From positions 1-42,273 of the forward strand of contig CANRLP010000002.1 of NCBI GenBank assembly GCA_947631515.1: DNA of 42,273 nt. The letters are read 5' to 3'. The notes below the pieces were generated by a model, which had not been told where the DNA came from, made no database searches, and saw only the letters and a list, made by a program, of their open reading frames with translations. Source of the DNA: an uncultured Bacilli bacterium (GTDB taxonomy: Bacteria; Bacillota_I; Bacilli_A; RF39; UBA660). Below are positions 3,871 through 23,260 of this stretch, one piece after another. Numbering within the stretch: position 1 is the stretch's first letter; each line of letters begins with the position of its first letter. The translations under genes were made by a program, and so were the position numbers.

Positions 3871-3891
3871 AGACCAACTGGTCTTTTTTTT
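3871..3891 (+). terminator. Rho-independent terminator between convergent genes
   Basis: AGACC (3871-3875), loop AACT, GGTCT (3880-3884), then T7 (3885-3891). Confidence 0.65.
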
Positions 3892-4765: not shown

Positions 4766-4770
4766 AAATA

Positions 4771-5494: not shown

Positions 5495-5935
5495 TTAATC
5501 TATAAATCCTAATGATCTTAATCTTTCTTCAATCTTTTTTTGCGAAGCATAACCAATAATTCTATTTAAAGTTGTTTGTTCTTCTCCTTTATTATAAAAA
5601 ACAGTAGTTGGTGTTCCACTAAAATTTACATATTGCGCTAATCTTTTACTATCTTCGGTACTTAAACCTGTAACATTTAATTCATAAGCAGTTATATTAT
5701 TTTCAGATAATGTCCGATTTAATTCAGGAAGATATTGTTCACAATGGCTACAACCAGTTTGCGTAATAACTAAAATAAAAGTATTTTTAGCTTTAATTTT
5801 ATTCTCATATTCAGAAATTGAAATTGTTTGAAGACTAGCATTATTATCAGCAAAAGCTAATTTATATACTAAAAAAACACCTATAGCTATTACAACTGCT
5901 ATTATTAAATATAATTTCCAATTCTTACTTTTCAT
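5495..5935 (-). CDS. Membrane-anchored thioredoxin-fold thiol-disulfide oxidoreductase
   Basis: N-terminal TM (LYLIIAVVIAIGVFLVY), CxxC active site (TGCSHCEQ) and cis-Pro loop (GTPTTVFY). Divergently transcribed from the pilus/T4SS locus. Confidence 0.8.
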   Translation of the reverse strand: MKSKNWKLYLIIAVVIAIGVFLVYKLAFADNNASLQTISISEYENKIKAKNTFILVITQTGCSHCEQYLPELNRTLSENNITAYELNVTGLSTEDSKRLAQYVNFSGTPTTVFYNKGEEQTTLNRIIGYASQKKIEERLRSLGFID

Positions 5936-6025: not shown

Positions 6026-6056
6026 CTAGGCATGAGATTTTAGGTTGGTGAGTGAA

Positions 6057-6797
6057 ATGAGAACGCGTTTAGTGGGCGTGATATTAGCTAGTGTGTTTCT
6101 GCTCATTCCAAATACAGTAAGAGCAGAAAGTGCTTGCAGTTATAGTGAGCAAGCAAAATTTAATGATATTGCTTCAAATGTAAAAGCAACTTATGATGTT
6201 GTAGATATATATTTAGGAAAAGGCATTGACGTTGATGAGGAGGGTGCTCCGGAAGTAGATATTAATGTTAAAGGCTTAAAAGTAAATATATTGAATGTTA
6301 CGGAAGATATTTATATTAACTTGATAAATAATAGTACCAAAGAAGAGAAAAAATATACTTATAGTGATACAAATAATGGTTTAATTACTTTTGAATTAAG
6401 AGATGTCTCAAGTGTAGTTAATTATACTATTGAAATATATGCCGCAACTAGTACTTGTGCAGGAGAATTAATTCGCAAAACTGAATTTTTAACACCACAA
6501 TATAATGAATATTCAGAATTGGATGTATGTGGTGAATATCCAGACTTCTATTATTGCCAAGAGTTTTTATTAGGAGATAATATTTCTCGAGAAGCTTTTA
6601 TGGAAAGAATAGAAGAATATAAGAAGAATAATGAACCAAAAGAACAAACCGAGGTTGATAAAAATATTTGGGATTCTATAAAAGAATTTTACCAAAAACA
6701 TCAAATGCCAATTAATATTATTGGATCAGTTATAATAATAGGTGGGGTTATTGGAGTAGTGATACTCGTAAAAAAAAGAAGGAGTAGAGTGTTATGA
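6057..6797 (+). CDS. Exported protein with C-terminal membrane anchor (246 aa)
   Basis: The ATG at 6057 follows GGTGAG; the track TTG at 6045 lies inside the RBS. Signal peptide MRTRLVGVILASVFLLIPNTVRA/ES. C-terminal TM plus basic tail (IIGSVIIIGGVIGVVILVKKRRSRVL) with no LPXTG. 4 Cys in the ectodomain. No family recognised. Confidence 0.6.
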   Translation: MRTRLVGVILASVFLLIPNTVRAESACSYSEQAKFNDIASNVKATYDVVDIYLGKGIDVDEEGAPEVDINVKGLKVNILNVTEDIYINLINNSTKEEKKYTYSDTNNGLITFELRDVSSVVNYTIEIYAATSTCAGELIRKTEFLTPQYNEYSELDVCGEYPDFYYCQEFLLGDNISREAFMERIEEYKKNNEPKEQTEVDKNIWDSIKEFYQKHQMPINIIGSVIIIGGVIGVVILVKKRRSRVL

Positions 6798-9697
6798 TAA
6801 AAGAAATGAGAAAGGTTATAATATTAATTTTAATTGTTACAATTGGTTTTAATTGTAAAAATGTAAATGCTGCTAGTGCTTACGGAAGATATATTCCCGG
6901 CGCAGCAATCCCAGTAGATATCAAATATAGTAATGGGAAAAGTTATCAAGATAACAAATTCCAAATAAGATTTGATTATAATGCAGGAGGAACAAATAAA
7001 AGCTTAGAATTAGATGCGTACTGTATCGACGTTGGTTATACCATGATGTCTGCTTACACACCTTTACAATGTACTCATGTAAAAGACAACGCTGCTTTAC
7101 AATATGCTATTACTCACTTAACAACAAATCATACTGTTAATCAATTAGTTTTACGTTTAGTAGCTATTGCTACCGGAGAAGCTAAATCATTAACTGAAAA
7201 AGGTGGTTATTTAAAAGCTTATATAGATAGTGGTGGAGGTTTAGTTGGAGACCAAACGATATTAGCTCAAGTAAAACAAAAATATGAAGAAGCTATGCGT
7301 GCCACTAATGCTTCAGTTTCAACAGGAAACAAATTACAATTTACGCAAACAGGGGGATCTAGTACTGCTAATAGTTATACAGCTACTTATAATGTTAGTA
7401 CAATTGATGGTAGCAGAATAAATTCCGTATCTTTTGCTTGTGAAAATTGCAATATGATTAGCCAAAGTTGGAATGGAACAAATGGTAGTGTTACCATTCA
7501 AGTTACTAATCAAGAATGTAATTACAATATAAATGCTTATTATAATTCAGGAGATAATTCTAACAATGGTAATAGTAATGGCAATGGAGAATTATATTTA
7601 TGTACAGCTAGCGGATTACAACAATTAGTTGTTAATGTTAGTAGTGCCGACGCTGCTCAAATTGGCGATAGTATAGGGGGAGGAAGTAATACACCAACTC
7701 AAAGCTATACGGGAACTGTTCCAGCATCAACAGGTGGAGAATATTACGCAAAATATTGTCAAAATAAATGTAATACACCAACTGAAATAAATATGCCTGC
7801 TTATTGTGATGATTCAGGTGAAGAAAATATCTCAATAAAAGGTCCTTCAAATATAAAAGCTTGTGTATTAAAAGGAAAAGATGAAGCGGGAAACAGTTAT
7901 CAAGATAGTACTTCCGTACCAGCTTCAAATCCATATTGTGCTGTTTATTGTAAAGAAGATTATGATATGTCACTTCCAGGGGCTCAATATACAACTAGTG
8001 GTAAGTATTTCCAATTAAAAAATACGACTGTAACAGGGAAACGCTCATGCTACGTAACAAGTGAAGTTGGTGGAAATACTGATGGAATTGATCTTTCAAA
8101 ATATAAAAAAGAAATGGTAGCTGCTCAACAACAATTAATCAATGCTTATAACGAATATAGTAAAGCAAAAGCTTTGTATGATAATAAAGGTAATGCGGCA
8201 ACTACTATAACAAGAGATTGCGAAGGTAAGGAAGCTGTTGAATATAATTTAACTGTAAATTATACATATTATAGAGCAAATTGTAGTGAATCAACTGGAC
8301 AATGTACGATAAGCTCTGGTACAGCAAGTGCTAGTGCTAAATGGGGAGCAGTAGCTCTATGTGGTGTTTCTACTGATACTATTAACTCTTCTACTGGAAA
8401 TGTAGGCAATGGTTATAATTGCCATAAAAATGGTTCAAAAAGTTATGTATGTACTAAAGAAGTTAGAACTTCGGCAACTATACCAGTAGATGGAGCTAAC
8501 GAACCAATGGCACCAAGTTTTGATTCAGTTTCAGCAGCTATGAATACAATTAAATCTAAAATTAGTAGTTTACAACAATGTTATAATTGGACAAATAACT
8601 TCTGTTTTAATCCAGATGTAGATTTTGATTATAATGAAGAATATAATTCTGATATTAATTATGAAAAAGTATCTGAGGATGGTGGAACTACAGAAACATC
8701 AATAGGTACATCTATTGATAATGCTTATAATCCAAATGGGGTAGGAAGCATTAATGAAACTATAAATTATATTGGATGTACCGAAAATTCATGTACCAAT
8801 AATGGTAATATAGGTACTAATATATCTTCTAACGTTACATATGTTAGAAAATCCGTAACTAAGTCAGCTTCTTTTAACAATCGTCAACAATTTCAAACCA
8901 ATTATCCACATGGAACTATTAACACAGTAACTGATCAAAGTGCTGTACGACAAAATTATTCTTATTTAGGAGCTGTATTCCCAGTAGCCTTAAAAACTGA
9001 TACAGGTGTATATAATTGGACTTTAAATTTCAAAAATATTGGTCAATATAATACCGAAAGTTGTAAATTAGGTAGATTAAATCAAGTTGCTACTGCGACT
9101 GGTAAAGTCTTAGAAGATAATATTGGATACGTTTGTGTATATGTAGTCGATTGTGATGATTGTGATTATGGATGTAATTGCCCAACTAATTTACCAGATG
9201 GTTATACATGCGTTAAACGAAGTCAATTTGTCTGTGAAATTATTGAAACAGATGAAAAATGTGACAATTGTGATGTATATTGTGTAAATTGTATATTTGA
9301 TGGAGACGATACTTATTCTTATCGTACTATTTCTCTATCTGATATAAATCCAAATAATCGAACTTTAGGAGCCAATTGGTCAAGTGCCAAAGGTCAAGCA
9401 ACAGAAAGTGAAATAGAAAAAAATAATGAATCAATCTACATAGAACCAGATTATTCATACACAATTACAGCTACACAAATGAAAAATATTAGAGATTATA
9501 ATAAACAAAAAGGTACTTATATCGCCGATGATTTAACTTATCATAAATTAAATAATTTTAATAATATTTATGGTACAAGTTCATTCTTAGATGAAGGTCA
9601 AAGTAAAGGCTTCTTTACAGAAAATAAAAGAAATACTTCATGGACTTTATGGACTGGTGAAGTAAATACCAATGGAATTGGTCCATCATGGAAATAG
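6794..9697 (+). CDS. 967-aa exported Cys-rich protein (candidate adhesin or pilus-associated component)
   Basis: The ATG overlaps the upstream stop (ATGA), with AAGGAG about 10 nt upstream. Signal peptide ends ...GFNCKNVNA/AS and there is no further TM. About 35 Cys in the mature part by my count, including 11 Cys within 53 residues at 9134-9292. Asn/Thr/Ser/Gly-rich. No family recognised. Confidence 0.7.
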   Translation: MIKEMRKVIILILIVTIGFNCKNVNAASAYGRYIPGAAIPVDIKYSNGKSYQDNKFQIRFDYNAGGTNKSLELDAYCIDVGYTMMSAYTPLQCTHVKDNAALQYAITHLTTNHTVNQLVLRLVAIATGEAKSLTEKGGYLKAYIDSGGGLVGDQTILAQVKQKYEEAMRATNASVSTGNKLQFTQTGGSSTANSYTATYNVSTIDGSRINSVSFACENCNMISQSWNGTNGSVTIQVTNQECNYNINAYYNSGDNSNNGNSNGNGELYLCTASGLQQLVVNVSSADAAQIGDSIGGGSNTPTQSYTGTVPASTGGEYYAKYCQNKCNTPTEINMPAYCDDSGEENISIKGPSNIKACVLKGKDEAGNSYQDSTSVPASNPYCAVYCKEDYDMSLPGAQYTTSGKYFQLKNTTVTGKRSCYVTSEVGGNTDGIDLSKYKKEMVAAQQQLINAYNEYSKAKALYDNKGNAATTITRDCEGKEAVEYNLTVNYTYYRANCSESTGQCTISSGTASASAKWGAVALCGVSTDTINSSTGNVGNGYNCHKNGSKSYVCTKEVRTSATIPVDGANEPMAPSFDSVSAAMNTIKSKISSLQQCYNWTNNFCFNPDVDFDYNEEYNSDINYEKVSEDGGTTETSIGTSIDNAYNPNGVGSINETINYIGCTENSCTNNGNIGTNISSNVTYVRKSVTKSASFNNRQQFQTNYPHGTINTVTDQSAVRQNYSYLGAVFPVALKTDTGVYNWTLNFKNIGQYNTESCKLGRLNQVATATGKVLEDNIGYVCVYVVDCDDCDYGCNCPTNLPDGYTCVKRSQFVCEIIETDEKCDNCDVYCVNCIFDGDDTYSYRTISLSDINPNNRTLGANWSSAKGQATESEIEKNNESIYIEPDYSYTITATQMKNIRDYNKQKGTYIADDLTYHKLNNFNNIYGTSSFLDEGQSKGFFTENKRNTSWTLWTGEVNTNGIGPSWK

Positions 9698-10141: not shown

Positions 10142-10978
10142 ATGGGAAATATCGTAACAACAATTAAAAGATTTTTAGGGAATAAAAACACCGTAACTAT
10201 TATCGGAGTAATTCTAGGGATTTTGGTTTTATATATAGGTTATAACTACCGAGTTAATCAAGCAACAACACCTGTCACTGTGCCTTATGCTAAAGAAGAA
10301 ATTTCATCACGTACTTTAATTACCAGTGATATGATTGGGTATATGGAAGTATCTAGTAGTGTGGTAAATAGTAGTCCAAATTTAATTACTAATGCTAGCC
10401 AATTAATTAATAATTATGTAGCATTTGGAACTACTATTCCAGCTAATAGTTTATTCTATAACTCTCAAATTTTAACATCAGACGAAATGCCAGATAGTGC
10501 ATTTGCTAATATTCCTGATGGTTATACTATTTATAGTTTAGGAGTTAATCTTCATACTACTTATGGTAACTCAATTTATCCAGGAAATTATATTGATTTA
10601 TACTTCAAAGGTATTGATGATACTCAAAAGATTATGTTTGGAAAATTAATTGAAAGTATTGAAGTTCTAGCCGTAAAAGATAGTAACGGAAATCACGTAT
10701 TTGAAACAACTGTAGAATCTCGGACACCTGCCGAATTACTATTTGCTGTACCAAATGATATGTATGATTTATTAATGAAAGCGGGTTATATTAGCGGTTC
10801 ATCAATCGAAATTATCCCTGTACCTCGTAATGCATCTTATAGTGCTAATCCAGGTGATACAGTAGTATCAAGTGATCAAATTAGAGACTTTATCTTATCT
10901 AAGAGTGCAACAATAGCTCAAAATACTACAACTACAACACCAAATAATCAAACAAATAATACTACTACAACTAACTAA
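10142..10978 (+). CDS. CpaB/RcpC-like pilus assembly protein (TM + SAF-like domain)
   Basis: GGAGG RBS. N-terminal TM (VTIIGVILGILVLYIGY), then the SAF-like stretch VPYAKEEISSRTLITSDMIGYMEV and a later ...IYPGNYIDLYF... segment, as in CpaB/RcpC. Thr/Asn-rich low-complexity tail. Confidence 0.6.
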   Translation: MGNIVTTIKRFLGNKNTVTIIGVILGILVLYIGYNYRVNQATTPVTVPYAKEEISSRTLITSDMIGYMEVSSSVVNSSPNLITNASQLINNYVAFGTTIPANSLFYNSQILTSDEMPDSAFANIPDGYTIYSLGVNLHTTYGNSIYPGNYIDLYFKGIDDTQKIMFGKLIESIEVLAVKDSNGNHVFETTVESRTPAELLFAVPNDMYDLLMKAGYISGSSIEIIPVPRNASYSANPGDTVVSSDQIRDFILSKSATIAQNTTTTTPNNQTNNTTTTN

Positions 10979-11009: not shown

Positions 11010-12227
11010 ATGACCAATGATGCTATATTTTCTCAATTAGATTTTGGACCCCTTGACGAATTTTTAAAACAAGATGACGTAACCGATATTTCTTATAGTA
11101 ATGGTGGCCAAATTTGGTTAAAGACTCTTTCCCGTGGTGTTTTTCAAGTAGAAAGACCCCAAATTAATAATGCTTTAATGGAAAAACTAGCTTTCCAATG
11201 TTCCAATGTTATGGGTAAAACATTCAATATGGCTCATCCCTTTTTGGATGCTGAATCAACTGAATTACGTTTAAACTTTGTCCATGAATCGATTGCTACT
11301 AATGGTATAGCTTGCTTAATTCGGAAGACACCTGCTAAAATTAGATTAAATCGTGAAAAACTTATTAACGAAAAATATGTTCGCGAAGATTTATTAGATT
11401 TCTTACTAGCCTGCGTTCAAGGTCATGCTAATATCATTGTTAGTGGTGAAACTGGTTCAGGTAAAACCGAGCTTGTTAAATACTTAGCTAGTACAACCAA
11501 AGAAAATGAAAAAATTATAACAATCGAAGATACTTTGGAATTACATTTAGATAGAATATTTCCTCATCGAGATATTGTCGCTATGAAAACCAATAACATT
11601 GCCTCATATACTGATGTTTTGGTTACTTGTATGCGTCAAAATCCTATTTGGATTTTACTATCCGAAGTTCGTAGTGCTGAAGCAGTTTTAGCCGTTCGTA
11701 ACTCTATATCATCTGGACACCATATAATTTCGACGATCCATGCAGATAAAGCAGCTAGTATTCCGATGCGTATGTATAGCTTACTAGAATCTAATCTAGA
11801 TGTTGAACAATTTTTATCAACTATTCATCGCTATGTCCAAATTGGAATATATGTTAAAGGTTATTTAAGTAAAGAACTAGGAAGATTTCAACGGGAAATT
11901 ATGGAAATTTGCGAATTCTATGTTGATGAAGACAACAAACCAAAAGCTAATACCATATTTCAAAAAACGATGGATGGTCAATTTACCTTAAATAATCCTA
12001 CGAAAAACTTAAGAGATTATTTAGCAATCCAAGGAGTAATTTTACCAGATGACATTTTTAGAACTACAGAAAGTCCTAAGCCAAATCTTAATCCTAGTCC
12101 AAATGTTACTCCTGTTACTCCTAATTTAAATCAAAATGTAACACCAAACATAAATACATCAAATATGCCAAATCCGAGTCAAGTATCACCCAATATTAAT
12201 ATGATAAACAATCAACAAGCGATATAA
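11010..12227 (+). CDS. TadA/CpaF-type (VirB11/GspE superfamily) secretion ATPase
   Basis: Walker A SGETGSGKTE, Asp box ITIEDTLEL, Walker B-like IWILLSEVR, His box SGHHIISTIHA. The C-terminal ~55 aa are a Pro/Asn-rich low-complexity tail. Followed by two T2SSF-like membrane proteins. Confidence 0.8.
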   Translation: MTNDAIFSQLDFGPLDEFLKQDDVTDISYSNGGQIWLKTLSRGVFQVERPQINNALMEKLAFQCSNVMGKTFNMAHPFLDAESTELRLNFVHESIATNGIACLIRKTPAKIRLNREKLINEKYVREDLLDFLLACVQGHANIIVSGETGSGKTELVKYLASTTKENEKIITIEDTLELHLDRIFPHRDIVAMKTNNIASYTDVLVTCMRQNPIWILLSEVRSAEAVLAVRNSISSGHHIISTIHADKAASIPMRMYSLLESNLDVEQFLSTIHRYVQIGIYVKGYLSKELGRFQREIMEICEFYVDEDNKPKANTIFQKTMDGQFTLNNPTKNLRDYLAIQGVILPDDIFRTTESPKPNLNPSPNVTPVTPNLNQNVTPNINTSNMPNPSQVSPNINMINNQQAI

Positions 12228-13944: not shown

Positions 13945-13973
13945 TTGATATTATAATAAAAAAAAGATATAAT
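13945..13973 (+). promoter_or_regulatory. Internal sigma-A-type promoter ahead of the pilin genes
   Basis: TTGATA (13945-13950), 17-nt spacer, TATAAT (13968-13973), followed by a strong RBS AGAGGAGG before ATG 14001. Confidence 0.5.
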
Positions 13974-14000: not shown

Positions 14001-14246
14001 ATGAAGGAAGCCACTGGAGAATTAAATATGACTGTTGTAACAGTAGTAGCAATTGCCGCTGTAGCAGCATTCTTCTATGCCTTTGTATGGCCATCTATAA
14101 AAAATAGTATTACTAGAAATACAAATTGTGCCAACGCTAGTTGTCCTGCTGGATGTACAACAGCTACTTGTGCTTGTACTTATATAGATGATAAAGGTGC
14201 AACTCAATCTGTTACATGTCCAAACCCAGATACAACTAAAAAATAA
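14001..14246 (+). CDS. Flp-sized pilin candidate 1 (81 aa) with Cys-rich C-terminal head
   Basis: AGGAGG RBS 8 nt upstream. Short polar leader MKEATG, then ELNMTVVTVVAIAAVAAFFYAFVW (hydrophobic helix), then a 6-Cys tail CANASCPAGCTTATCACTY...TC. Tandem paralog of the 14265 gene. Confidence 0.6.
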   Translation: MKEATGELNMTVVTVVAIAAVAAFFYAFVWPSIKNSITRNTNCANASCPAGCTTATCACTYIDDKGATQSVTCPNPDTTKK

Positions 14247-14264
14247 TATAAAAGGAGTTTATAA

Positions 14265-14504
14265 ATGAAACAAGCCACTGGAGAATTAAATATGACTGTT
14301 GTAGTAGTTATAGCGGTAGGAGTCCTAGCGGCTTTTTTCTATACAACTTTATGGCCCCAATTAAAAGGAAGTTATATTGCATCTAGTAAATGTAATGATG
14401 CCGTATGTGATCCTAAAACTTTAAGAGATGGTAAAGTTACATGCAATTATTATAAAAATGGTGAAATCCAAGGTAAAAGCTTTGAATGTGTTTGGAAAGG
14501 TTAA
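14265..14504 (+). CDS. Flp-sized pilin candidate 2 (79 aa)
   Basis: AAGGAG RBS. Leader MKQATG, then ELNMTVVVVIAVGVLAAFFYTTLW, then a 4-Cys tail. Nt 14272-14303 are identical to 14008-14039 of the first pilin gene. Confidence 0.6.
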   Translation: MKQATGELNMTVVVVIAVGVLAAFFYTTLWPQLKGSYIASSKCNDAVCDPKTLRDGKVTCNYYKNGEIQGKSFECVWKG

Positions 14505-14520
14505 TTGAGGAAGTGATAAT

Positions 14521-14973
14521 ATGAGGGAAGCAATAGGTGGAACATGGTTATTTCAAATAGTAATTATTTTCGTCTTATTATTTACAGGATTCATGTGTTT
14601 AACAATTAACCATTCCAAAGCATTTAATGTTAAAAATACTATTATAAAAGCCATTGAAAGAGAAGAAGGCGCCGATTTAAATAATCCTAACCAAGATCCA
14701 GCAATTCGGAGAATTGTTTCTTATTTAAGAGAAGCATCTTATCGAACAACAGGTAATTGTCCGAATGGTTATATTGGCTATAACAGAGATGGTCTTATTG
14801 ATAGTCGAAATTCTGCTTTTTGTATTCAAAAAACAGTAACTAAAAATTCTAATGATTTACCAGATATGAGTTATTATCGAGTTGTGGTATTTTATCAACT
14901 TGATTTGCCGATATTTAATGAAGTATTTAATTTTACTGTAACTGGAGATACCAGATTAATTAATAAAAGTTAA
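14521..14973 (+). CDS. Minor-pilin/TadE-like protein (150 aa)
   Basis: N-terminus MREAIGGTWLFQIVIIFVLLFTGFMCL, then a globular part with a Cys pair (GNCPNG...AFCIQK). Paralog of the 15000 gene. Confidence 0.5.
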   Translation: MREAIGGTWLFQIVIIFVLLFTGFMCLTINHSKAFNVKNTIIKAIEREEGADLNNPNQDPAIRRIVSYLREASYRTTGNCPNGYIGYNRDGLIDSRNSAFCIQKTVTKNSNDLPDMSYYRVVVFYQLDLPIFNEVFNFTVTGDTRLINKS

Positions 14974-14999
14974 AACTATACAGAGAAGTAGGTGATAAA

Positions 15000-15488
15000 A
15001 TGAGAGAAGCAATAGGTGGAACATGGATTATGCAATTAGTAATCGTTTTTATGTTGATTTTCGTTGCTTTTTTAGCTTTGTCACTAAATTATAGTAAAGC
15101 TTTTCAAATGAAAAATGAAGTAATGACTATAATTGAAAAAAGAGAAGGCTTAACTACCGGACCAAATGGTAGTATAGCTTTAATTAATAGTTATTTGTCT
15201 AATAATGGGTATCGTGTAAGAAGAGGGTGTCCAGTTGGTAGTTATGGCGTATCAGATTTAACAAATTCCACCATTGAAAAAGTTGCCACAACCGGTAAAC
15301 AATATTATTATTGTGTTCAAAAAGTTAAATCGGGAACTAAAAATGAACCTCAAAAAGCATATTATAAAATTAATATTTTCTTTTATTTTAACTTGCCAGT
15401 AGTGGGAGACATTTTCAAATTTAATATTAATGGAGCAACTAATGATATTCTTATTCCTGCCGATAATTTACAAGCAATAACAGAATAG
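15000..15488 (+). CDS. Minor-pilin/TadE-like protein (162 aa)
   Basis: N-terminus MREAIGGTWIMQLVIVFMLIFVAFLAL, with a Cys pair (RGCPVG...YYCVQK). Nt 15006-15026 are identical to 14527-14547. Confidence 0.5.
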   Translation: MREAIGGTWIMQLVIVFMLIFVAFLALSLNYSKAFQMKNEVMTIIEKREGLTTGPNGSIALINSYLSNNGYRVRRGCPVGSYGVSDLTNSTIEKVATTGKQYYYCVQKVKSGTKNEPQKAYYKINIFFYFNLPVVGDIFKFNINGATNDILIPADNLQAITE

Positions 15489-16571: not shown

Positions 16572-16943
16572 ATGAATTTATTTTTAACAGGAGCAATTGA
16601 TTTTTGTAAAGGAACTGCTAATATTTGGCAAATAGTTGGATATGTTTTATTAGTATTTAAAATTATTATTCCAATTCTTTTAATTGTATTTGGTATGCTT
16701 GATTTAGGAAAAGCAGTAACTGCTAGTAAACCAGATGAAATTAAAAAATCTGTAACTGGTTTAGCATATAGAGCAGTAGCAGGTGTGGTTATCTTTTTAA
16801 TTCCAACAATTGTAGGACTTATAATGGGATTTGTATCTGATTTTAGTACTTCTGGTGCTAAAGATGATTTTGAAATTTGTCGATCATGTATTACAAGACC
16901 AAATGGTGATTGTAGCGGATATGCTTCTGATGCATGGAAATAA
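16572..16943 (+). CDS. VirB2/TrbC-like two-TM hairpin protein, paralog 1 (123 aa)
   Basis: Two hydrophobic helices, IVGYVLLVFKIIIPILLIVFG and AVAGVVIFLIPTIVGLIMGF, joined by the polar loop MLDLGKAVTASKPDEIKK. Cys-containing tail (CRSC...C). Flanked by its own promoter and terminator. Confidence 0.55.
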   Translation: MNLFLTGAIDFCKGTANIWQIVGYVLLVFKIIIPILLIVFGMLDLGKAVTASKPDEIKKSVTGLAYRAVAGVVIFLIPTIVGLIMGFVSDFSTSGAKDDFEICRSCITRPNGDCSGYASDAWK

Positions 16944-16966
16944 AAGCAAGAAATTGCTTTTTTTTT
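16944..16966 (+). terminator. Rho-independent terminator/attenuator after VirB2-like gene 1
   Basis: AAGCAA (16944-16949), loop GAAA, TTGCTT (16954-16959), T tract to 16966. Confidence 0.6.
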
Positions 16967-16999
16967 GGCTCTATGTTATAGTAAAGATAGGTGAGAATC

Positions 17000-18118
17000 A
17001 TGAAACAAATCATAAATCTATCTAAAGAATTTTTAGGTAAATTTGATAAACAAAAACTATTTTTATTAGGAAGTATTATTGGAGTAATGGTTGTCATTAT
17101 TATTACAATATCAATTGTAGTTAAAATTGTTGGACTTCATATTTCTTACGAAGATTTAGAAGAAAAACTAGCTCGGGCAACTGAACAATATATGAATGAT
17201 TATCCAAATAATTTGCCTACGGAAAGTAATCCAACAGTTGTAGTTACTACTTCAACTTTAGTAGAAAATAAATATATTAAAGAAATAACTAAATATGTAA
17301 AAGATAATTCTTGTACTGCTAATATTAATGTTTATTACAATAATGGAAAATATAAATATCAACCATTTGTAATATGCAATGATTTTAAAACTGAACTATT
17401 TATAGATCGCTTAAAAACGGATAATGTAATCTCAGCTTTCGGTGAAGGATTATATGAATTAAATGGGGAACAAGTATATCGTGGTCAAAATCCTAATAAT
17501 TTTATGATGTTTGCCGATGAATTATGGCGGATTGTTAAAATTAATGCTAATGGTCAATTTATCATAATCAAAAATGATTTAGAATCCAAAAATTATGGTA
17601 ATTGGGATAATCGTTATAACACAGAAGCTCAAACTCAAAAAGGTAATAACACTTTTGCTTTAAGTCGAGCTCTAATAGCTATAACAGAAATTTATAGAGA
17701 AAAATATTTAGATTATGAAAAATATTTAAATACTTTTGAAGTTTGTGCTGGAAAAAGAGATAGTGGATCTTTTGATAAAAGTGGTGCAATAGAATGTAGT
17801 ACTAAATTAAGTAATCAATTTATTTCTTTATTACCATTATACGATTATATGAATGCTAGTTTAGATAATTCATGCGTAAATGCTAGTAGTAGAGAATGCC
17901 AAAATTATAATTATTTAGTCAATAAAAAAGATAAATGGTGGACAGTAACGGGAGATGCTAAAAATTCTTACAATGTATATTATATAAATACTTCTGGTCA
18001 AATTAATTCAGAAGAAGCAGCTATTAGTGCTAATTACCGGTATATTTTAGCATTAGATAAAAACGTATTGTATAAAGAAGGAACGGGTACAGAAGAAGAC
18101 CCATATATAATTCGTTAG
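17000..18118 (+). CDS. Bitopic exported protein (372 aa), T4SS-associated (VirB8/adhesin candidate)
   Basis: The ATG at 17000 lies 6 nt after AGGTGA; the track GTG at 16991 is inside the RBS. N-terminal TM LFLLGSIIGVMVVIIITISIVV, 6 Cys in the ectodomain, internal ELWRIVKINANGQFIIIKND and C-terminal KWWTVTGDAKNS... motifs, ending GTGTEEDPYIIR. Confidence 0.55.
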   Translation: MKQIINLSKEFLGKFDKQKLFLLGSIIGVMVVIIITISIVVKIVGLHISYEDLEEKLARATEQYMNDYPNNLPTESNPTVVVTTSTLVENKYIKEITKYVKDNSCTANINVYYNNGKYKYQPFVICNDFKTELFIDRLKTDNVISAFGEGLYELNGEQVYRGQNPNNFMMFADELWRIVKINANGQFIIIKNDLESKNYGNWDNRYNTEAQTQKGNNTFALSRALIAITEIYREKYLDYEKYLNTFEVCAGKRDSGSFDKSGAIECSTKLSNQFISLLPLYDYMNASLDNSCVNASSRECQNYNYLVNKKDKWWTVTGDAKNSYNVYYINTSGQINSEEAAISANYRYILALDKNVLYKEGTGTEEDPYIIR

Positions 18119-18150
18119 ATATTTTTAAAAACATCCAAATAGCAGATAAA

Positions 18151-18179
18151 TTTACAAACTATTTTTAACATGCTATAAT
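18151..18179 (+). promoter_or_regulatory. Sigma-A-type promoter with extended -10 ahead of VirB2-like gene 2
   Basis: TTTACA (18151-18156), 17-nt spacer, TGc-TATAAT (18171-18179). Confidence 0.5.
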
Positions 18180-18205
18180 GACTATAGAAAAATTAGGTGA
18201 GTAAT

Positions 18206-18559
18206 ATGGAAGACATTTTTTTAACTCTTTTGTCATCATCAAGTTTATGTAGCGAAAGTGGAGTATTAAAATCATTTCGTTTTATTGGCTATATTTTATT
18301 TATAATCAAAATTCTTATTCCTGTAATTTTAATTATTATGGGATCTATAAATTTTGGTAAGGCCGTTCTTGATTCAAATAATGATAGTGTAAAAAAAGCA
18401 GGAATTACTTTTGCTACACAAATAGTTTCGGCAGTGGTAATTTTTCTTATACCAACCATTGTTAATTTTGTATTTGGCTTGCTTCCACAAGAAAATGTAA
18501 GCTATGAAAATTGTGCTACTTGTTTATTTGATCCAACAAATTGTAAAATAAATGATTAG
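18206..18559 (+). CDS. VirB2/TrbC-like two-TM hairpin protein, paralog 2 (117 aa)
   Basis: The ATG at 18206 lies 5 nt after AGGTGA. Shares with paralog 1 the pattern IGYILFIIKILIPVILIIMGSINFGKAV...KK...AVVIFLIPTIVNFVFG. Cys tail CATCLFDPTNC. Confidence 0.55.
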   Translation: MEDIFLTLLSSSSLCSESGVLKSFRFIGYILFIIKILIPVILIIMGSINFGKAVLDSNNDSVKKAGITFATQIVSAVVIFLIPTIVNFVFGLLPQENVSYENCATCLFDPTNCKIND

Positions 18560-18586
18560 AAAGTATTATATTTTTAATACTTTTTT
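18560..18586 (+). terminator. AT-rich hairpin terminator after VirB2-like gene 2
   Basis: AAAGTATTA (18560-18568), 6-nt loop, TAATACTTT (18575-18583), T tract to 18586. The stem is all A/T apart from one G-C pair, so it is weak. Confidence 0.4.
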
Positions 18587-18603
18587 ATTTGCACATTTAA
18601 TAC

Positions 18604-18632
18604 TAGTATTGTTTAGAAAATGTTGGTATAAT
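18604..18632 (+). promoter_or_regulatory. Extended -10 promoter ahead of the 391-aa VirB2-domain fusion gene
   Basis: TGg-TATAAT (18624-18632). The -35 position reads TAGTAT, which is weak. Confidence 0.4.
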
Positions 18633-18666
18633 TATAAAGAGTAAGTGAAAAAAGTAGGGATATGTC

Positions 18667-19842
18667 ATGAAGAAAATTTGTCAAGTTATAATACTTTTTA
18701 TGGGAATGCTTTTTGGCATTTCTATTGTTAATGCTAAAAATACTTTGATGACATGTGAATATTATAAAGCTGAAGATCAATTAGAAGGTTCTCCCCAAGC
18801 TGGTATTCTCTGTAATATTTTTACAGATTATTCTCATCAATGCTATGTTGAAGTAGGGGCTGCTAAAGCTACTACTAGTTCAAATAAAGAAAAAATTCAA
18901 AACTGGAATTCAGCAGTAGGATTGTCATGGAAAGCTAAAGATTATGTTCAACAAAGTAATCAATGTCCGGAATATTTAGTTGTTCGTTTAAAAAATGGTG
19001 CTTGGTTTAATGCGGGTGGTTATGAATTACATGCTGCGGCATCTCAACAAGAAGCCTTAGATTTAAGCCTTAAATTAAGTGATCAAAGATATTTAGCTCA
19101 TAAAATTGGTGATGCTAGTGCTGCTGAAACTGCCAAAGCTGTTGCCGATGTTCAAAGTTTTATAGATAATATGAATGATACTAAAAATAATTATTCTTTA
19201 AATTCTTGTAAAAATGATAATGTTATTTCAACTCGATTACAAAAATGTAATGATATAATATCTGCTTTAGAAAGTCGGATGGCTAGTTATGATACTAACG
19301 TAACTAATATGATTAATGCCGGTTATTTAAATGAAGATGATGATATTATAAAATCATATCGAGAAACAGTTGAAAATACGGAAAATTTTATTAATCAAGC
19401 CGAATCAGAATTAAGTGTTGAAGAAGAAAAAATTAAACAAGAAATGGGTTTGGCTGATGAAGATATAGTTGCAAATCCTAATAATATGAGTTGCCGTGTG
19501 ATAGATAATAAATATTATGATATTAATGGTAATGAAGTTACTAAAGAAGAATATGCAACTTCTTGTAATGCTGATTGTGGTATTTTTAGTGGTCGATTAG
19601 GGGATTTTTTAAAAACAATTTTATCTTTTATTCGCTTTGCTGTACCTATAATCATTATAGGGTTAGGAATTATGGATTTTTTAAAAGCTACTGCTTCACA
19701 AGATAACAATGAAATCAAAAAAGCGGCAACTAAATTAGTAAAAAGAATGGTAATTGGTATAATAATATTTGTTTTACCAACATTAATTGAATTAATACTT
19801 CGCTTAGCGGATATTAAATATGGTACTTGTGGTATTAGATAG
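18667..19842 (+). CDS. Exported coiled-coil protein with C-terminal VirB2-like hairpin domain, paralog 3 (391 aa)
   Basis: Signal peptide MKKICQVIILFMGMLFGISIVNA/KN. A ~300-aa Cys-containing/helical ectodomain. The C-terminal LKTILSFIRFAVPIIIIGLGIMDFLKATASQDNNEIKKAATKLVKRMVIGIIIFVLPTLIELIL matches the hairpin of paralogs 1 and 2. Confidence 0.6.
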   Translation: MKKICQVIILFMGMLFGISIVNAKNTLMTCEYYKAEDQLEGSPQAGILCNIFTDYSHQCYVEVGAAKATTSSNKEKIQNWNSAVGLSWKAKDYVQQSNQCPEYLVVRLKNGAWFNAGGYELHAAASQQEALDLSLKLSDQRYLAHKIGDASAAETAKAVADVQSFIDNMNDTKNNYSLNSCKNDNVISTRLQKCNDIISALESRMASYDTNVTNMINAGYLNEDDDIIKSYRETVENTENFINQAESELSVEEEKIKQEMGLADEDIVANPNNMSCRVIDNKYYDINGNEVTKEEYATSCNADCGIFSGRLGDFLKTILSFIRFAVPIIIIGLGIMDFLKATASQDNNEIKKAATKLVKRMVIGIIIFVLPTLIELILRLADIKYGTCGIR

Positions 19843-19857
19843 AAAGGAGGCATCTAA

Positions 19858-21813
19858 ATGAAATGGTTAGCTAATGGTTTAATAGGAATTTTACTATATC
19901 TAGATGGAATAGTTTATTGGTTGATTAGCCTTCTATTTGATTTATATGAAAAATTAGCTGGAGCCGATATTTTTGCTAATAGTGGATTATACGAAGAAGT
20001 TTCTCAAAGATTTTTAGTAGTCATTGGCGTTTTTATGCTTTTTTACTTAGCTTATTCACTATTAAGAGCTTTAGTTAACCCTGATGAATTATCTAAAAAT
20101 ACTAGTAAAATAGTTATTAACATTGCTGTCTCGCTAATTTTATTAAATGTGGTTCCGGTAATATTTAACTATGCTTTTGAACTTCAAAATATTATAATTG
20201 AGGACAAAGTTATTAGTAAATTTGTTTTTGGCAATGGCGATACAACTATTGCTAGTGTCGGAAAAAGTACAGCTTTAACTTTTTTTGATGCTTTTATTGA
20301 AGTTAAAGGTACTCCGGAAATAAAGGGAGATCGTACTTACACCTGGGATACTTTAAAAATATGTATTGATGATAATACTTCACCCGGTTGTGTCGGAAAT
20401 GAAAGTTTTCGAAGTTTACATTTGTTATCTGATGCAGTTGTTGCTGGAGACATTGAGTACACATGGTTAATTAGTACTTTATGTGGTGCATTTTTAGTAT
20501 ATGTTATTGCTTCCTTTTGTATTGATTTAGGTATACGAGTTGTTAAACTGGGCTTTTATCAAATTATTTCCCCAATACCGATATTATTGCGAATAATTCC
20601 AGAGAAAAAAAGCGTTTTTGATAACTGGGTAAAAGCTACTTTGGCTACTTATTTAGAAGTATTTATTCGCTTATTTATAATGTATTTAATCACTTTTATA
20701 GCATCTAAGATTTTAGATTTAGATTTTTCAGGACTAGGTATATTTGGTAAAATTATTGTTTTAATGGGTATTTTTGCCTTTGGTCGTCAAGCCCCTAAAT
20801 TAGTAGGTGAAGTTATTGGTGTAAATTCTGGTAATATTAAACTTGGTATTCGTGATAAATTAACAACTGGAGGTGCTTTCGCTGCTGGAGCTGTACTTGG
20901 TGGAGCGGGAACAACAATTGCAAGAAATTTAACACATGGTTATAATAATTTTAAGCAAGCTGAAGGTGGATGGAATAAATTCAAAGCCTTTGGTAGAACT
21001 GTAGGAAGTACTTTGACTGGCGCTGCTAGTGGAGCAATAAGAAGTGGTTATCAAGCGAGAAATGCTAAAAACTTTACTGATATGCGTAATGCTACTAATA
21101 AAGGAATTCAAACAACTATAGATAATCGAAACAAAGGAGAGTCATATAGAGCTAGTCATGCGACTACGGGAGTCATGAGAGGTCATGCTACAGATTTCGC
21201 AAGGTCTGTTGGTGAATGGGCTGGTGTAACTGCTGGTGAAGAAGGATTAAAGAAGCAATTGGATATTTATACTAAAGGAGCAGATTTCAAAAAGCAATTA
21301 GAAGATTTAGCTTTAAAGAAAAGTACAAAAGCCAAATTATATGATCAACAAATAGATGCTTTAAATAAAGAAGCTATAGATCCTAATAGTTTTAAAGATG
21401 CCAATGGTGTATTAGATAATGCTTCTTATAGTGCTGCTATATCTGCTAGAGCTAGTCAAATCGATCAATTAAGAAGAGCTAAGAATTTTGAGGTTATGAA
21501 AGTTGTTAGTGAAAAACTAAATAATATAGATGATGCTAAAAATATTGAATTTAAACAAATTGTTAATTCTTTTGAAACTTATAAAAAACAAAATGCTAAC
21601 TTAGCCGGAATAAATGATTTACAAGATCTAACAACTACAAATTGGAATTCATCTTGGGATAATATAGATGCTATGAGTTTAACAAAGAATGATTTTGATA
21701 AAATTAAAAATCAAGTATCATATACATCTAATCATGAAACATTAAATGCCAAGAAGAATGAGACTGCTGCTAAATATGCTGAGCATATTCAAAAGACGCA
21801 AGAAAAGAAGTAG
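19858..21813 (+). CDS. VirB6/TrbL-like polytopic T4SS channel protein (651 aa)
   Basis: GGAGG RBS. The N-terminal ~330 aa carry multiple TM helices, followed by Gly/Ala-rich segments (TTGGAFAAGAVLGGAGTT) and a long hydrophilic coiled-coil tail. Size, topology and position upstream of VirB3/VirB4 fit Gram-positive VirB6 analogues. Confidence 0.55.
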   Translation: MKWLANGLIGILLYLDGIVYWLISLLFDLYEKLAGADIFANSGLYEEVSQRFLVVIGVFMLFYLAYSLLRALVNPDELSKNTSKIVINIAVSLILLNVVPVIFNYAFELQNIIIEDKVISKFVFGNGDTTIASVGKSTALTFFDAFIEVKGTPEIKGDRTYTWDTLKICIDDNTSPGCVGNESFRSLHLLSDAVVAGDIEYTWLISTLCGAFLVYVIASFCIDLGIRVVKLGFYQIISPIPILLRIIPEKKSVFDNWVKATLATYLEVFIRLFIMYLITFIASKILDLDFSGLGIFGKIIVLMGIFAFGRQAPKLVGEVIGVNSGNIKLGIRDKLTTGGAFAAGAVLGGAGTTIARNLTHGYNNFKQAEGGWNKFKAFGRTVGSTLTGAASGAIRSGYQARNAKNFTDMRNATNKGIQTTIDNRNKGESYRASHATTGVMRGHATDFARSVGEWAGVTAGEEGLKKQLDIYTKGADFKKQLEDLALKKSTKAKLYDQQIDALNKEAIDPNSFKDANGVLDNASYSAAISARASQIDQLRRAKNFEVMKVVSEKLNNIDDAKNIEFKQIVNSFETYKKQNANLAGINDLQDLTTTNWNSSWDNIDAMSLTKNDFDKIKNQVSYTSNHETLNAKKNETAAKYAEHIQKTQEKK

Positions 21814-22380
21814 GTGAATGAAGTGAGTTTTTTAGACATACTGAGAGACTGGCCTACTGGGAATTATCATGATTATACAATGGAAAATGATATTTATGAT
21901 CAGCTACTAAATTTAATCGATCAATTAGAGGAAAAATTGGAGATAATTGCTTTAAAAGGAACATTGAGTGATGCTTGGGCCACATTTGAATATTCAGATA
22001 CAATATATACCTTAATATTACTTAAAAGTTTGATTGAGTTAAGAATAAAACAAAATATAAGAAAAATAAATAAATCTATGTTAGTTGAATTAGAACATTT
22101 ACAAAACTTTTATAAAAAAATGGAAGAAATCGTAAAAAATAATATTATTAAAGTTTGTTCTTATGAAGAAGGCATGGAAGAAGTTTATTGGAATTTAATG
22201 GAAATAAAAAAATTACTTTTAAATAGTGCTAGTCTAAAAGCAATAAGAAGTCTAAATTTTGATTATCAAAATTTAGATTTAACTTATAATCAAATTCAGC
22301 AATTAAAACAAAGTATAACAATAAGGAAATGTGAAATTGTTCCATATATAGAAGATATGAATTATCAAAAAAAGAAATAA
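21814..22380 (+). CDS. Hypothetical cytoplasmic helical protein (about 185-188 aa)
   Basis: Begins immediately after the upstream TAG. The start is GTG 21814 or, more likely, in-frame GTG 21823, 5 nt after AGGTGA. No TM segment and no recognised motif. Confidence 0.45.
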   Translation: MNEVSFLDILRDWPTGNYHDYTMENDIYDQLLNLIDQLEEKLEIIALKGTLSDAWATFEYSDTIYTLILLKSLIELRIKQNIRKINKSMLVELEHLQNFYKKMEEIVKNNIIKVCSYEEGMEEVYWNLMEIKKLLLNSASLKAIRSLNFDYQNLDLTYNQIQQLKQSITIRKCEIVPYIEDMNYQKKK

Positions 22381-22395
22381 AAAGGAGAATAAGAA

Positions 22396-22707
22396 ATGAA
22401 TCATAATTACTTAATACCAGCCAATTCTAAAAAATCTATGTTGATACTAGGCTTTTTTACCCCTGTAGATTTAGCAATATTTGGAACGGGTTGTGCCTTT
22501 ACTTTAATAATGCTACTAGTTTTTAACTCGAAAGTAGGTTTAGGATCCGTCATGTTATTACTTGCTCCTGCTTTGATTGCTACATTCTTAGTAATGCCAG
22601 TCCCAAATTATCACAATATATTACAATTAATAACTAACATTTTTACATTTTTACTTGGAAGAAAAAGGTATTATTGGAAAGGCTGGTGTGTAAAAGATGA
22701 AAAATAA
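22396..22707 (+). CDS. PrgI/VirB3-like small membrane protein (103 aa)
   Basis: AAGGAG RBS. Two TM helices (MLILGFFTPVDLAIFGTGCAFTLIMLLVF; SVMLLLAPALIATFLVMPV). Lies immediately upstream of, and overlaps by 11 nt, the VirB4 N-domain gene, as PrgI-family genes do in Firmicute T4SSs. Confidence 0.6.
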   Translation: MNHNYLIPANSKKSMLILGFFTPVDLAIFGTGCAFTLIMLLVFNSKVGLGSVMLLLAPALIATFLVMPVPNYHNILQLITNIFTFLLGRKRYYWKGWCVKDEK

Positions 22708-23260
22708 TGAATCAAGTGTTTCAAGCAAATATACAGAAGATTGGATGCCAATAAAACAAATTTTAAATGGTATGATTCAACTTGATAATGGGGAATTTGT
22801 TACAGGTGTTAAAGTAACACCTCGGAACATATTTATCTTAGATCAAGGTACTCAAGATAATGTAATTTATAATCTACGTAATTTTTATAATACAATTGAT
22901 TATGAATTTTGGTTGATAGTTGCAGATCGACCTGTTGATATAAATATTTATTTATCCCAATTACAGGTTTTATATAATAATGCAACGACAGGAACAATGC
23001 GTAAATTAATAATGCAAGATATAAATAAAGCTAATATGTTTATGAGTGCTGAATACAATGTAGTCGATACTGAATATTTTATTATATTCAAAGAAAAGAA
23101 AATGGAAATTATTCAAAAAAGATTACATAATCTAATTGCTAATCTTTCTACTTGTGGATTAATTTCTACTCAAGTATCGAATAATGACTTGCGAATGTTA
23201 ATTGACAATTTCTTAAATGGGGGAAAACCATCAACATTAGGAACGGTGATGCCAGAATGA
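22697..23260 (+). CDS. VirB4 N-terminal domain encoded as a separate 187-aa protein
   Basis: EDWMPIKQILNGMIQLDNGEFVTGVKVTPRNIFILDQGTQDNVIYNLRNFYNTIDYEFWLIV... follows the pattern I recall for the first ~190 aa of single-chain Firmicute VirB4 ATPases. Its stop overlaps the next start (ATGA). Confidence 0.55.
   Translation: MKNNESSVSSKYTEDWMPIKQILNGMIQLDNGEFVTGVKVTPRNIFILDQGTQDNVIYNLRNFYNTIDYEFWLIVADRPVDINIYLSQLQVLYNNATTGTMRKLIMQDINKANMFMSAEYNVVDTEYFIIFKEKKMEIIQKRLHNLIANLSTCGLISTQVSNNDLRMLIDNFLNGGKPSTLGTVMPE

Follow-up and report, generated by a model that had tools for sequence, protein, structure and literature searches.

The window analyzed here, 42,273 nucleotides (nt) of contig CANRLP010000002.1 (GenBank assembly GCA_947631515.1), is a low-GC (25-32%) piece of chromosome from a spore-forming Firmicute, an uncultured Bacilli bacterium of rabbit gut metagenome origin, and our subject is a set of four adjacent genes within it, at 14001-15488, whose products resemble pilins with an unusual N-terminal leader. 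The flanks of the window carry ftsW/rodA, cotZ, ftsA, ftsZ, spoIIGA, sigE, sigG, and nrdDG, and from 6045 to 30460 there runs a single co-directional gene block on the plus strand, the first half of which consists of pilus genes and the second of a type IV secretion module. In order, the first half encodes a 250-amino-acid (aa) protein, a 967-aa protein, a DUF5411 protein, a CpaB/RcpC-like protein, a secretion ATPase, two polytopic membrane proteins, the products of the four pilin genes, and a 334-aa protein. We propose that the four genes supply two major and two minor subunits, and the DUF5411 gene a third minor one, of a Tad-like type IV filament from a previously undescribed gut-Bacilli family, and that their leader is cut after a conserved Gly by an enzyme encoded away from the locus. 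Taken as a whole, this reading stands at roughly even odds (a probability of about 0.5), and the sections of the argument that follow carry different weights.

A preliminary description of this DNA had singled out the N termini of these proteins, and open reading frame (ORF) translations bear it out: the two small pilins (79-81 aa) begin MK[EQ]ATGELNMTVV, the two larger proteins (150 and 162 aa) begin MREAIGGTW[LI], and the protein encoded at 9714 begins MKESYWGYWL. The first small pilin is laid out as a leader, MKEATG, the segment ELNMTVV, a hydrophobic helix, and a small, hypervariable, Cys-rich hairpin at the C terminus. The second, with the leader MKQATG/ELNMTVV, belongs to a paralogue type ending in C-x-WKG; it falls into the same BLAST cluster as the first and has orthologues in most of the related loci that we compared (denoted below by L numbers). 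The family is large. A word-seeded search with pilin 1 returned 1941 relatives, the top 120 of which begin MK[ED]ATGELNM (with E in 118) and continue with a near-invariant TV[VI]TVVAIAAVAAFFYAFVWP, while their C-terminal halves are hypervariable except for four to six Cys residues. Very strong conservation at the N terminus combined with hypervariability at the C terminus is the pattern seen in pilins. An exhaustive profile search yielded at least 744 clusters at 50% identity, with the consensus M-K-[ED]-A-[TS]-G-[ED]-L-[NS]-x-[TA]-[VLA]-[VI]; across these clusters MKEATGEL[NS] is almost invariant, so that the leader motif noted in the window has proved to be a property of the family. A scan of one genome per species (GTDB representatives) gave at least 599 pattern matches and at least 379 confirmed sequence stretches, nearly all from uncultured gut Bacilli, "Tenericutes" or Erysipelotrichaceae bins, and plasmid and phage collections held no match to the pilin. 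One family protein is labeled [Clostridium] spiroforme in the NCBI record of a metagenome-assembled genome (MAG), a species now named Thomasclavelia spiroformis and placed in the order Erysipelotrichales. Going by that MAG label, a cultured carrier appears to exist, which makes the questions raised by the family directly testable.

The two larger proteins of the cassette start M-[KR]-[EQ]-[AST]-[IV]-G-[GTS]-x-W, and R2, E3, A4, I5, G6, G7, and Q12 are invariant in 33 sequences. Orthologues of the DUF5411 protein start M-[KR]-E-[AS]-[YF]-W-G-Y-W, and from its sequence we take this protein to be a probable third minor-pilin-like subunit with the leader MKESYWG. None of the three (encoded at 14521, 15000, and 9714) has an acidic residue after the Gly, unlike TadE/TadF proteins with their G/xxxxE[FY], and none matches TadE (PF07811) in a full scan of Pfam-A. 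The four cassette proteins, major and minor alike, match no Flp (PF04964), TadE or pilin-type family in full Pfam-A and NCBIfam searches at E <= 0.01, and profile searches of the pilins against solved structures gave nothing significant. AlphaFold2 (AF2) models of a major and a minor pilin nevertheless share an architecture, namely a long N-terminal hydrophobic helix followed by a small beta domain. In the model of major pilin 1 (predicted local distance difference test score, pLDDT, 79), the helix spans residues 10-45 and the hairpin residues 56-74, with residues 1-9 unstructured; in that of minor pilin A (pLDDT 81), helices at 5-47 and 60-72 precede a sheet of 4-5 strands with a conserved Cys pair, giving the "lollipop" shape of a pilin.

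Table 1. Features of the pilus region and its surroundings, in order of position along the window, with the basis for each assignment.
Feature	Position	Strand	Basis and remarks
Membrane metallophosphoesterase (LpxG/YaeI-like)	3890-4774	-	Pfam Metallophos and NCBIfam; co-transcribed with the CPBP gene
CPBP/Rce1-like intramembrane glutamic protease	4771-5493	-	Pfam PF02517, 49.3 bits against a cut-off of 22.4; divergent from the pilus operon
Thioredoxin-fold protein (PedC/BrcD-like)	5495-5935	-	Pfam Thioredoxin_2 and Thioredoxin; TIGR01295 E 3e-10, below cut-off; 10 loci
First two operon genes	6045-9697	+	ORFs and sequence features; kept at the operon start in 43-47 loci
DUF5411 protein, 136 aa	9714-10124	+	GTG start; MKESYWGYWL start; Pfam PF17424 E 9e-57; present in 50 loci
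CpaB/RcpC-like protein	10142-10978	+	Pfam RcpC E 9e-06, below gathering score; TIGR03177 E 3e-07, below cut-off
Secretion ATPase, CpaF/TadA-VirB11-FlaI clade	11010-12227	+	Pfam T2SSE E 8e-27, above gathering score
Two polytopic membrane proteins, 297 and 262 aa	12255-13938	+	TadB/TadC position; putative platform, by position and topology
Promoter-like TTGATA-17-TATAAT	13945-13973	+	In the 62-nt gap before pilin 1; 11/12 consensus match
Putative major pilin 1, 81 aa	14001-14246	+	ORF; protein starts MKEATGELNMTVVTVV
32-nt block	14008-14039	+	Exactly equal to 14272-14303
Putative major pilin 2, 79 aa	14265-14504	+	ORF; protein starts MKQATGELNMTVVVVI
Putative minor pilin A, 150 aa	14521-14973	+	Leader MREAIG(G); 447 homologues
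21-nt block	14527-14547	+	Exactly equal to 15006-15026
Putative minor pilin B, 162 aa	15000-15488	+	Leader MREAIG(G); paralogue of A at 36% identity, same cluster
Cytoplasmic protein, 334 aa	15502-16506	+	Always 3' of the minor pilins; 81 loci
Type IV secretion module	16572-30460	+	Three T4SS-pilin-like, VirB6-, VirB3-, and TraC-like proteins, VirB4, SpoIID-like hydrolase, VirD4-type coupling protein

All five putative subunits follow one leader grammar, M-[KR]-[EQ]-[AST]-x-(x)-G, over 6-7 residues. The segment before the Gly is common to the major, minor, and DUF5411 classes and the segment after it is specific to each class, an arrangement that fits one shared recognition step by a common leader peptidase; the Gly itself is rarely replaced, and then by Ser. 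The claim that these pilin-like proteins bear a short, polar, noncanonical leader ending in Gly thus finds support in the conservation among orthologues. The processing region of the major pilins reads G/ELNMTV, with Glu at +1, Thr at +5, and Val at +6, and not the Flp motif G/xxxxEY, while the minor proteins have no acidic residue there, just as the preliminary description had it. Nor does the leader conform to the class III signal of type IV pilins (a basic leader followed by G/[FMLIV]xxxE), as its net charge is ~0 and there is no Glu at +5. It is conceivable that the N terminus is not cleaved at all, and that these are signal-anchor proteins or unprocessed subunits in which MKEATGELN functions in the mature protein, for instance as a contact with the ATPase or platform. 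Invariance is as strong in the six residues that precede the Gly as in those that follow, net positive charge and a dedicated peptidase in the locus are both lacking, AF2 assigns no structure to residues 1-9, and Gram-positive tad-like loci with no recognizable prepilin motifs are on record (PMC3244431). We consider this improbable, however, as the element shared by otherwise unrelated classes ends exactly at Gly (rarely Ser), in the manner of a cleavage signal, unprocessed pilins do not assemble in the known systems, and a filament would have to bury the charges that sit at the tip of the core helix.

The setting of the genes bears on what kind of subunit they encode. A CpaF-type ATPase gene lies 1.8 kb upstream of the 79-81-aa pilins; the best matches of its product in the PDB are CpaF (4e-18) and VirB11 (8e-16), and the VirB11 and TadA models of NCBIfam both match below their cut-offs. 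The 334-aa protein has zero matches in Pfam, NCBIfam, and the PDB, and judging by its position and a degenerate P-loop it would be TadZ/CpaE-like. In some loci, which we call split, the pilin cassette occurs without ATPase and platform genes alongside. In L051 and L091 a canonical Tad locus (L051 15085-19918; L091 1-1703) is found 3-4 kb away, with obg and a DUF192 gene between; this Tad locus encodes an Flp pilin (MNKRG/QALVEY), two TadE-like proteins (with a TadE leader MMNKKG/QALVEF), a ParA-type CpaE, CpaF, and TadB/C proteins that do match T2SSF. The presence of the cassette beside such a locus ties the family to Tad systems. In L005 and L016 (10001-13955), which represent one lineage, rplT/cmpB and recA flank an isolated cassette made up of the two pilin genes, both minor-pilin genes, and the gene in the TadZ position, far from any ATPase gene in view.

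A different reading of the same neighborhood is that the small proteins are not filament subunits but membrane proteins, possibly oriented N-out/C-in, that serve the adjacent type IV secretion system (T4SS), with the ATPase as its VirB11. It draws on the charge distribution, which favors an N-out orientation by the positive-inside rule, on the about equal scores of the ATPase against VirB11 and CpaF, on the T4SS genes that follow in many loci, and on the missing T2SSF platform homology. We think it very unlikely. The cassette is also found without VirB4 and VirB6 (L001) and, as noted, beside a canonical Tad locus (L051 and L091), the Ser/Thr/Gly-rich hypervariable C termini, YfhO/GT2 genes, thioredoxin-fold gene, and Cys pairs point to an extracellular C-terminal domain, and the model of the minor pilin is pilin-shaped.

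Several results nonetheless weigh against the proposal of processed, Tad-like filament subunits. The leader carries no net positive charge (K2, E3, and E7) and K34 and R39 lie after the helix, a pattern that is unusual for class III signals and contrary to the positive-inside rule. Foldseek searches of the PDB with the major-pilin and minor-pilin models returned zero significant neighbors, and the resemblance of these models to pilins is therefore one of shape only. The 297- and 262-aa polytopic proteins show no T2SSF homology by Pfam, by PDB profile search or by hhalign against the canonical TadB/C of L017; an hhalign comparison of the two platform-like families with each other gave no signal. 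Then there is the matter of the prepilin peptidase, a member of the A24 family in known systems. That the window contains no such gene had been claimed previously, and Pfam scans confirm it: the window has 48 ORFs of 90 aa or more, and the 45 that were scanned gave no match to Peptidase_A24, the other three being antisense inside larger genes; the absence extends to ~90 related loci. Precomputed Pfam annotations place no A24 gene within ~10 kb of the pilins in 97 loci (1.56 Mb), A24 is absent among the 25 most-matched of 47 families when Pfam is searched with 34 multi-pass candidates from all loci, and a six-frame scan for GxGDx[KR] over the 1.56 Mb produced no multi-pass candidate. Most Gram-positive tad loci, by comparison, carry tadV (PMC3244431).

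The reading that we favor, and to which we would grant slightly less than an even chance, is cleavage after the conserved Gly by an A24 enzyme whose gene lies at some other place in the genome, for example ComC from a comG competence system. A shared A24 enzyme unlinked to the locus starts with the strongest prior, since, to our knowledge, every characterized type IV filament system uses one. For A24 enzymes, Gly at -1 is the main determinant of cleavage, while Glu at +5 is needed for assembly and not for cleavage. In the stretches covered of the canonical Tad loci of L051 and L091, tadV is likewise not visible, which makes unlinked peptidase genes plausible in those genomes. In Erysipelotrichales, moreover, comG operons are reported to be vertically inherited (PMC12786226), implying that an A24 ComC exists in that order. 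We also considered as leader peptidase a C39-like domain found in a protein of 713-799 aa, and rejected it: the protein occupies the slot of the T4SS cell-wall hydrolase (SpoIID-like) and would act outside the membrane.

A more radical solution is encoded next to the operon. The CPBP/Rce1-like intramembrane glutamic protease may itself be the leader peptidase, in place of an A24 enzyme, cutting a short cytosolic tail from the N terminus much as Rce1 acts on CAAX proteins; with its partner metallophosphoesterase it would then have taken over the role of prepilin peptidase, recognizing M-[KR]-E-[AS]-x-G. Both the assignment of the protease and this wider takeover strike us as possible but on balance doubtful. 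The three CPBP motifs, EExxxR, FxxxH, and HxxxN, are each at least 90% conserved in 27 homologues, and the metallophosphoesterase gene lies 3' of the CPBP gene in all loci examined, with a 4-nt overlap in the window. The CPBP protein is the sole membrane protease that travels with the pilin genes, being adjacent in 28 of the 41 loci whose upstream region is visible. Among 21 contiguous loci, ~17 have it upstream of and divergent from the first pilus gene, with a gap of ~60-150 nt where the two directly abut, and in ~11 of the 20 split loci it is the immediate neighbor of the pilin cassette. In most loci the protease is just 28-43% identical to that of the window, yet adjacency and catalytic motifs are kept; in the reverse test, a protease-only search, all six distant CPBP homologues (34-44% identity) adjoin pilus genes. 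A weak match links the protein to MroQ, a member of the CPBP family whose annotation is that of a processing endopeptidase, and none of the 97 loci offers an A24 gene in its stead. L091 holds canonical [KR]G/QALVE[YF] and noncanonical leaders within 6 kb, and the coexistence of two leader grammars suggests two recognition systems. Within the CPBP family, myxosortases cut sorting signals that lie beside membrane helices (PMC11980579; bioRxiv 10.1101/2023.06.07.544157).

Set against this is the universal use of A24 enzymes by the characterized systems mentioned above, and the linkage itself admits other explanations. About 13 of the 41 loci with a visible upstream region have no adjacent CPBP gene. 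The outer flanks are also syntenic within each class of locus (CotZ, PTS-EIIB, and FtsW, or LCP and PAP2), and the split arrangement could stem from one deletion, so that part of the CPBP linkage may be ordinary synteny. The protease could instead process the C-terminally anchored 250-aa protein (6045-6797), an alternative substrate that its sequence would allow, or have an immunity-like role; in split loci, however, the CPBP gene stays with the pilin cassette and not with the gene for the 250-aa protein. A literature search found no link between CPBP proteases and pilins. Were the proposal to hold, this would be a type IV filament system that dispenses with an A24 aspartic peptidase for its maturation, the first of its kind. 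In two loci (L013 and L014), a different phosphoesterase (c108) precedes the pilin cassette.

Returning to a filament of processed, Tad-like subunits, a course of assembly can be sketched. The operon would be transcribed from a promoter before 6045, and the major pilins probably from their own promoter at 13945-13973, a site that is a consensus match only and of a kind not enriched over the region as a whole. The five subunits would enter the membrane by way of their N-terminal helix, and the 6-7-residue leader would be removed after the Gly at the cytoplasmic face of the membrane, leaving the major pilins with Glu at +1. Polymerization of these pilins would fall to the CpaF-like ATPase and the two polytopic proteins, and the three minor subunits, which lack the acidic residue just as tip or priming subunits of other systems do, may prime or cap the filament in a GspK-like fashion, perhaps presenting the Cys-rich 967-aa protein. 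More speculatively, Glu at +1 might assume the charge-neutralizing role of Glu at +5, or cyclize like Gln at +1 of archaeal Epd pilins. The hypervariable Cys-rich and Ser/Thr/Gly-rich tails, together with the thioredoxin-fold gene and the YfhO/GT2 genes, suggest that the C termini would form an exposed, disulfide-stabilized, and sometimes glycosylated surface.

All of this presumes that the leader is translated, and the preliminary description had left room for another view. It had noted, correctly, that both major-pilin genes of the window contain GGAG, 8 nt, and an in-frame ATG, and had raised the prospect of an internal start at Met10, or of a constraint acting on the nucleotides themselves. 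A comparison of codons in 139 genes from 84 loci, with one locus per species, speaks to both ideas. The peptide MKEATGELN is fixed across these genes while its codons vary: Ala4 is encoded by GCA, GCG, GCT, and GCC in 72, 29, 25, and 13 genes, respectively, all of GGA, GGT, GGC, and GGG are in use for Gly6, and TTA, CTA, CTT, and CTC for Leu8. Synonymous codon entropy in the leader (1.73 bits for Ala4, 1.28 for Thr5, 1.54 for Gly6, and 1.11 for Leu8) is as high as that of the same residues in the membrane helix, and a Shine-Dalgarno-like site precedes the annotated ATG in 130 of the 139 genes. An invariant peptide with free synonymous sites means that the leader is translated, that the start is the annotated ATG, and that selection operates at the level of the protein; the nucleotide-level constraint was accordingly rejected. 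Met10 is present in 109 of 159 genes and GGAG in 80, with both together in just 65, and position 10 may hold any of M, L, A, S, T, I, and G in the genes of the loci and V in other family members. As Met10 and GGAG are not conserved, the internal start, too, was rejected as a feature of the family: of this earlier suggestion the sequence arrangement stands and the alternative start does not.

The same description had reported that the leader regions of the paralogues in the window contain identical blocks, of 32 nt in the major-pilin genes and 21 nt in the minor-pilin genes. Both are exact and peculiar to this genome, and both exceed what chance would lead one to expect from other pairs in the family. 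When 75 pairs of adjacent pilin genes from other species are compared over their first 60 nt, the longest stretch of identity has a median of ~11, and a run of at least 32 nt occurs in 5 of 75 pairs, the window included; among 69 minor-pilin pairs the 21 nt of the window is the longest, with a median of 7-8 and the next at 15. In most species the two pilin paralogues differ at 3-6 synonymous sites over the first 13 codons. In six relatives Leu8 is CTA in pilin 2 and TTA in pilin 1, whereas the window has TTA in both, and pilin 1 and pilin 2 of the window both carry GCC-ACT...ACT-GTT-GTA. The replacement of a paralogue-specific Leu8 codon and the rarity of such runs elsewhere argue for gene conversion, which of the two explanations originally proposed is the better one. 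The simplest reading of the 32-nt block would be a recent conversion tract, from pilin 1 to pilin 2, in this lineage; the 21-nt block probably reflects a similar event, and neither block seems to have a function of its own. The competing idea, that the blocks serve as an RNA element or an internal ribosome-binding site for a leaderless product starting at Met10 (MTVV...), can point to the GGAG-8 nt-ATG arrangement in both window genes and to the identity of all 9 degenerate codons in the block. We find it hardly credible in view of the freedom with which synonymous sites of the block vary between species, the 3-6 sites at which paralogues differ elsewhere, the patchy occurrence of Met10 with GGAG, the strict protein-level selection on the upstream peptide, and the Shine-Dalgarno-like sites positioned for the annotated ATG.

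How far the family resembles known systems can be assessed part by part. With Tad/Flp pili (type IVc), it shares ~80-aa major subunits and larger minor ones with the same leader, a CpaF-like ATPase, a weak CpaB/RcpC match, two polytopic proteins encoded between the ATPase and the pilins, and a protein in the TadZ position. It departs from them in having Glu at +1 and not +5, no Tyr at +6, no match to the family profiles, no T2SSF, and no tadV in or near ~90 loci, as well as in the Cys-rich hairpin of its major pilins and the joining of the locus to a type IV secretion module. Archaeal type IV/Epd pilins (PibD, FlaK, and EppA) offer a second parallel, with a very short leader ending in Gly, no need for Glu at +5, and a polar residue at +1. 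In EppA substrates, Gln at +1 becomes pyroglutamate; by analogy, Glu at +1 of the major pilins could do likewise. Unlike the archaeal pilins, those described here come from a bacterial host, lack basic residues at -2/-3, have no A24 gene nearby, and show no detected sequence similarity to them.

Two published descriptions come closer. Miller et al. 2022 (PMC9523054) reported a DUF5411 operon, predicted by machine learning to serve secretion or a pilus, in Roseburia, Ruminococcus, and Eubacterium; like the present locus it combines a CpaF-type ATPase, DUF5411, and large surface proteins with other genes that are unrecognizable, and no peptidase is mentioned. It differs in having a recognizable PilC/GspF and in belonging to Clostridia, and its small pilins and their leaders are not described. 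The Gram-positive loci of Imam et al. 2011 (PMC3244431) resemble ours in their tadA, tadC, tadZ, and rcpC genes and in pilins "without an apparent prepilin motif", and differ in being those of L2-50 and Desulfitobacterium hafniense. Neither paper describes the pilins, the leader or the protease linkage, and a literature search turned up no description of an MKEATG-type pilin family; what the sequences outline is, as we read them, a Tad-like filament with a leader grammar of its own. For the CPBP gene, the closest comparisons are Rce1, MroQ, and MrtX: the linked protease has the three CPBP motifs, and the family cuts short segments beside a membrane anchor. In contrast to the arrangement supposed here, known CPBP substrates are cut near the C terminus or are pheromone precursors, and none is a pilin or linked to a type IV filament.

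Type IV filaments are recognized in genomes by a leader motif, an A24 peptidase, and a T2SSF platform. The present family escapes recognition on all three counts, and a major surface structure of common gut bacteria would therefore be invisible to current annotation. With Glu at +1 instead of +5, it provides a natural test of what a pilin N terminus needs, and it prompts one to ask whether pilins can be matured by an enzyme from a different protease family. Its connection with a chromosomal, relaxase-less T4SS hints at a part in contact between cells, or in the transfer of DNA or protein, among monoderm bacteria, for which we know of no conjugative pilus.

The secretion module includes VirB4 at 23257-25041 (Pfam P-loop_TraG and AAA_10) and a coupling protein at 28289-30460 (T4SS-DNA_transf), and its gene order recurs in many loci. 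Three of its genes (16572-16943, 18197-18559, and 18667-19842) are paralogues encoding a T4SS_pilin-like membrane hairpin with a Cys-containing tail, the third with a 300-aa N-terminal extension. Pfam and NCBIfam searches of the ORFs of the island turned up neither a relaxase nor an integrase family. The chromosomal flanks of the island are the same in several species, and this shared site suggests that the module is resident rather than an integrative element. Its content is variable, however: L001-L004, metagenome contigs whose pilin carries the [Clostridium] spiroforme label, have the same locus and flanks (an Rce1-like gene on one side, rhodanese and RmuC on the other) without VirB4, VirB6, and the T4SS-pilin genes, and keep the hydrolase, a 256-aa protein, and the coupling protein, which indicates that the secretion module is variably reduced.

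At the other end of the block, the first operon gene (6045-6797) encodes a secreted protein of 250 aa with a signal peptide and a C-terminal membrane anchor, and the second (6794-9697) a Cys-rich surface protein of 967 aa that is a candidate adhesin. Neither has any family match in Pfam or NCBIfam. The C-terminal end of the 250-aa protein, a hydrophobic segment followed by KKRRSRVL, gives it a tripartite ending like that of C-terminal sorting signals. Both the pilins (14001-14504) and the 967-aa protein are unusually Cys-rich for an anaerobic Firmicute, and the thioredoxin-fold protein is a candidate for a dedicated disulfide oxidase or isomerase acting on Cys-rich pilins or the adhesin. In nine loci (L017, L046, L050, L061, L066, L070, L081, L088, and L092), a YfhO-family protein of ~820-840 aa with 11 helices is encoded directly upstream of the pilins, in some cases with a GT2 gene, and these genes suggest pilin glycosylation in those lineages.

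Two further observations concern the origin of the sequences. Many of the contigs compared (L012, L015, L018, L019, L021, L023, and others) are labeled "uncultured Muribaculaceae" (Bacteroidota); their gene content and flanks are Bacilli-like, and the labels are probably binning or naming errors. A dUTPase gene and, after it, a BRO-N domain gene lie where the window ends on the right (40762-42172), a pair that may mark the edge of a prophage or other mobile element.

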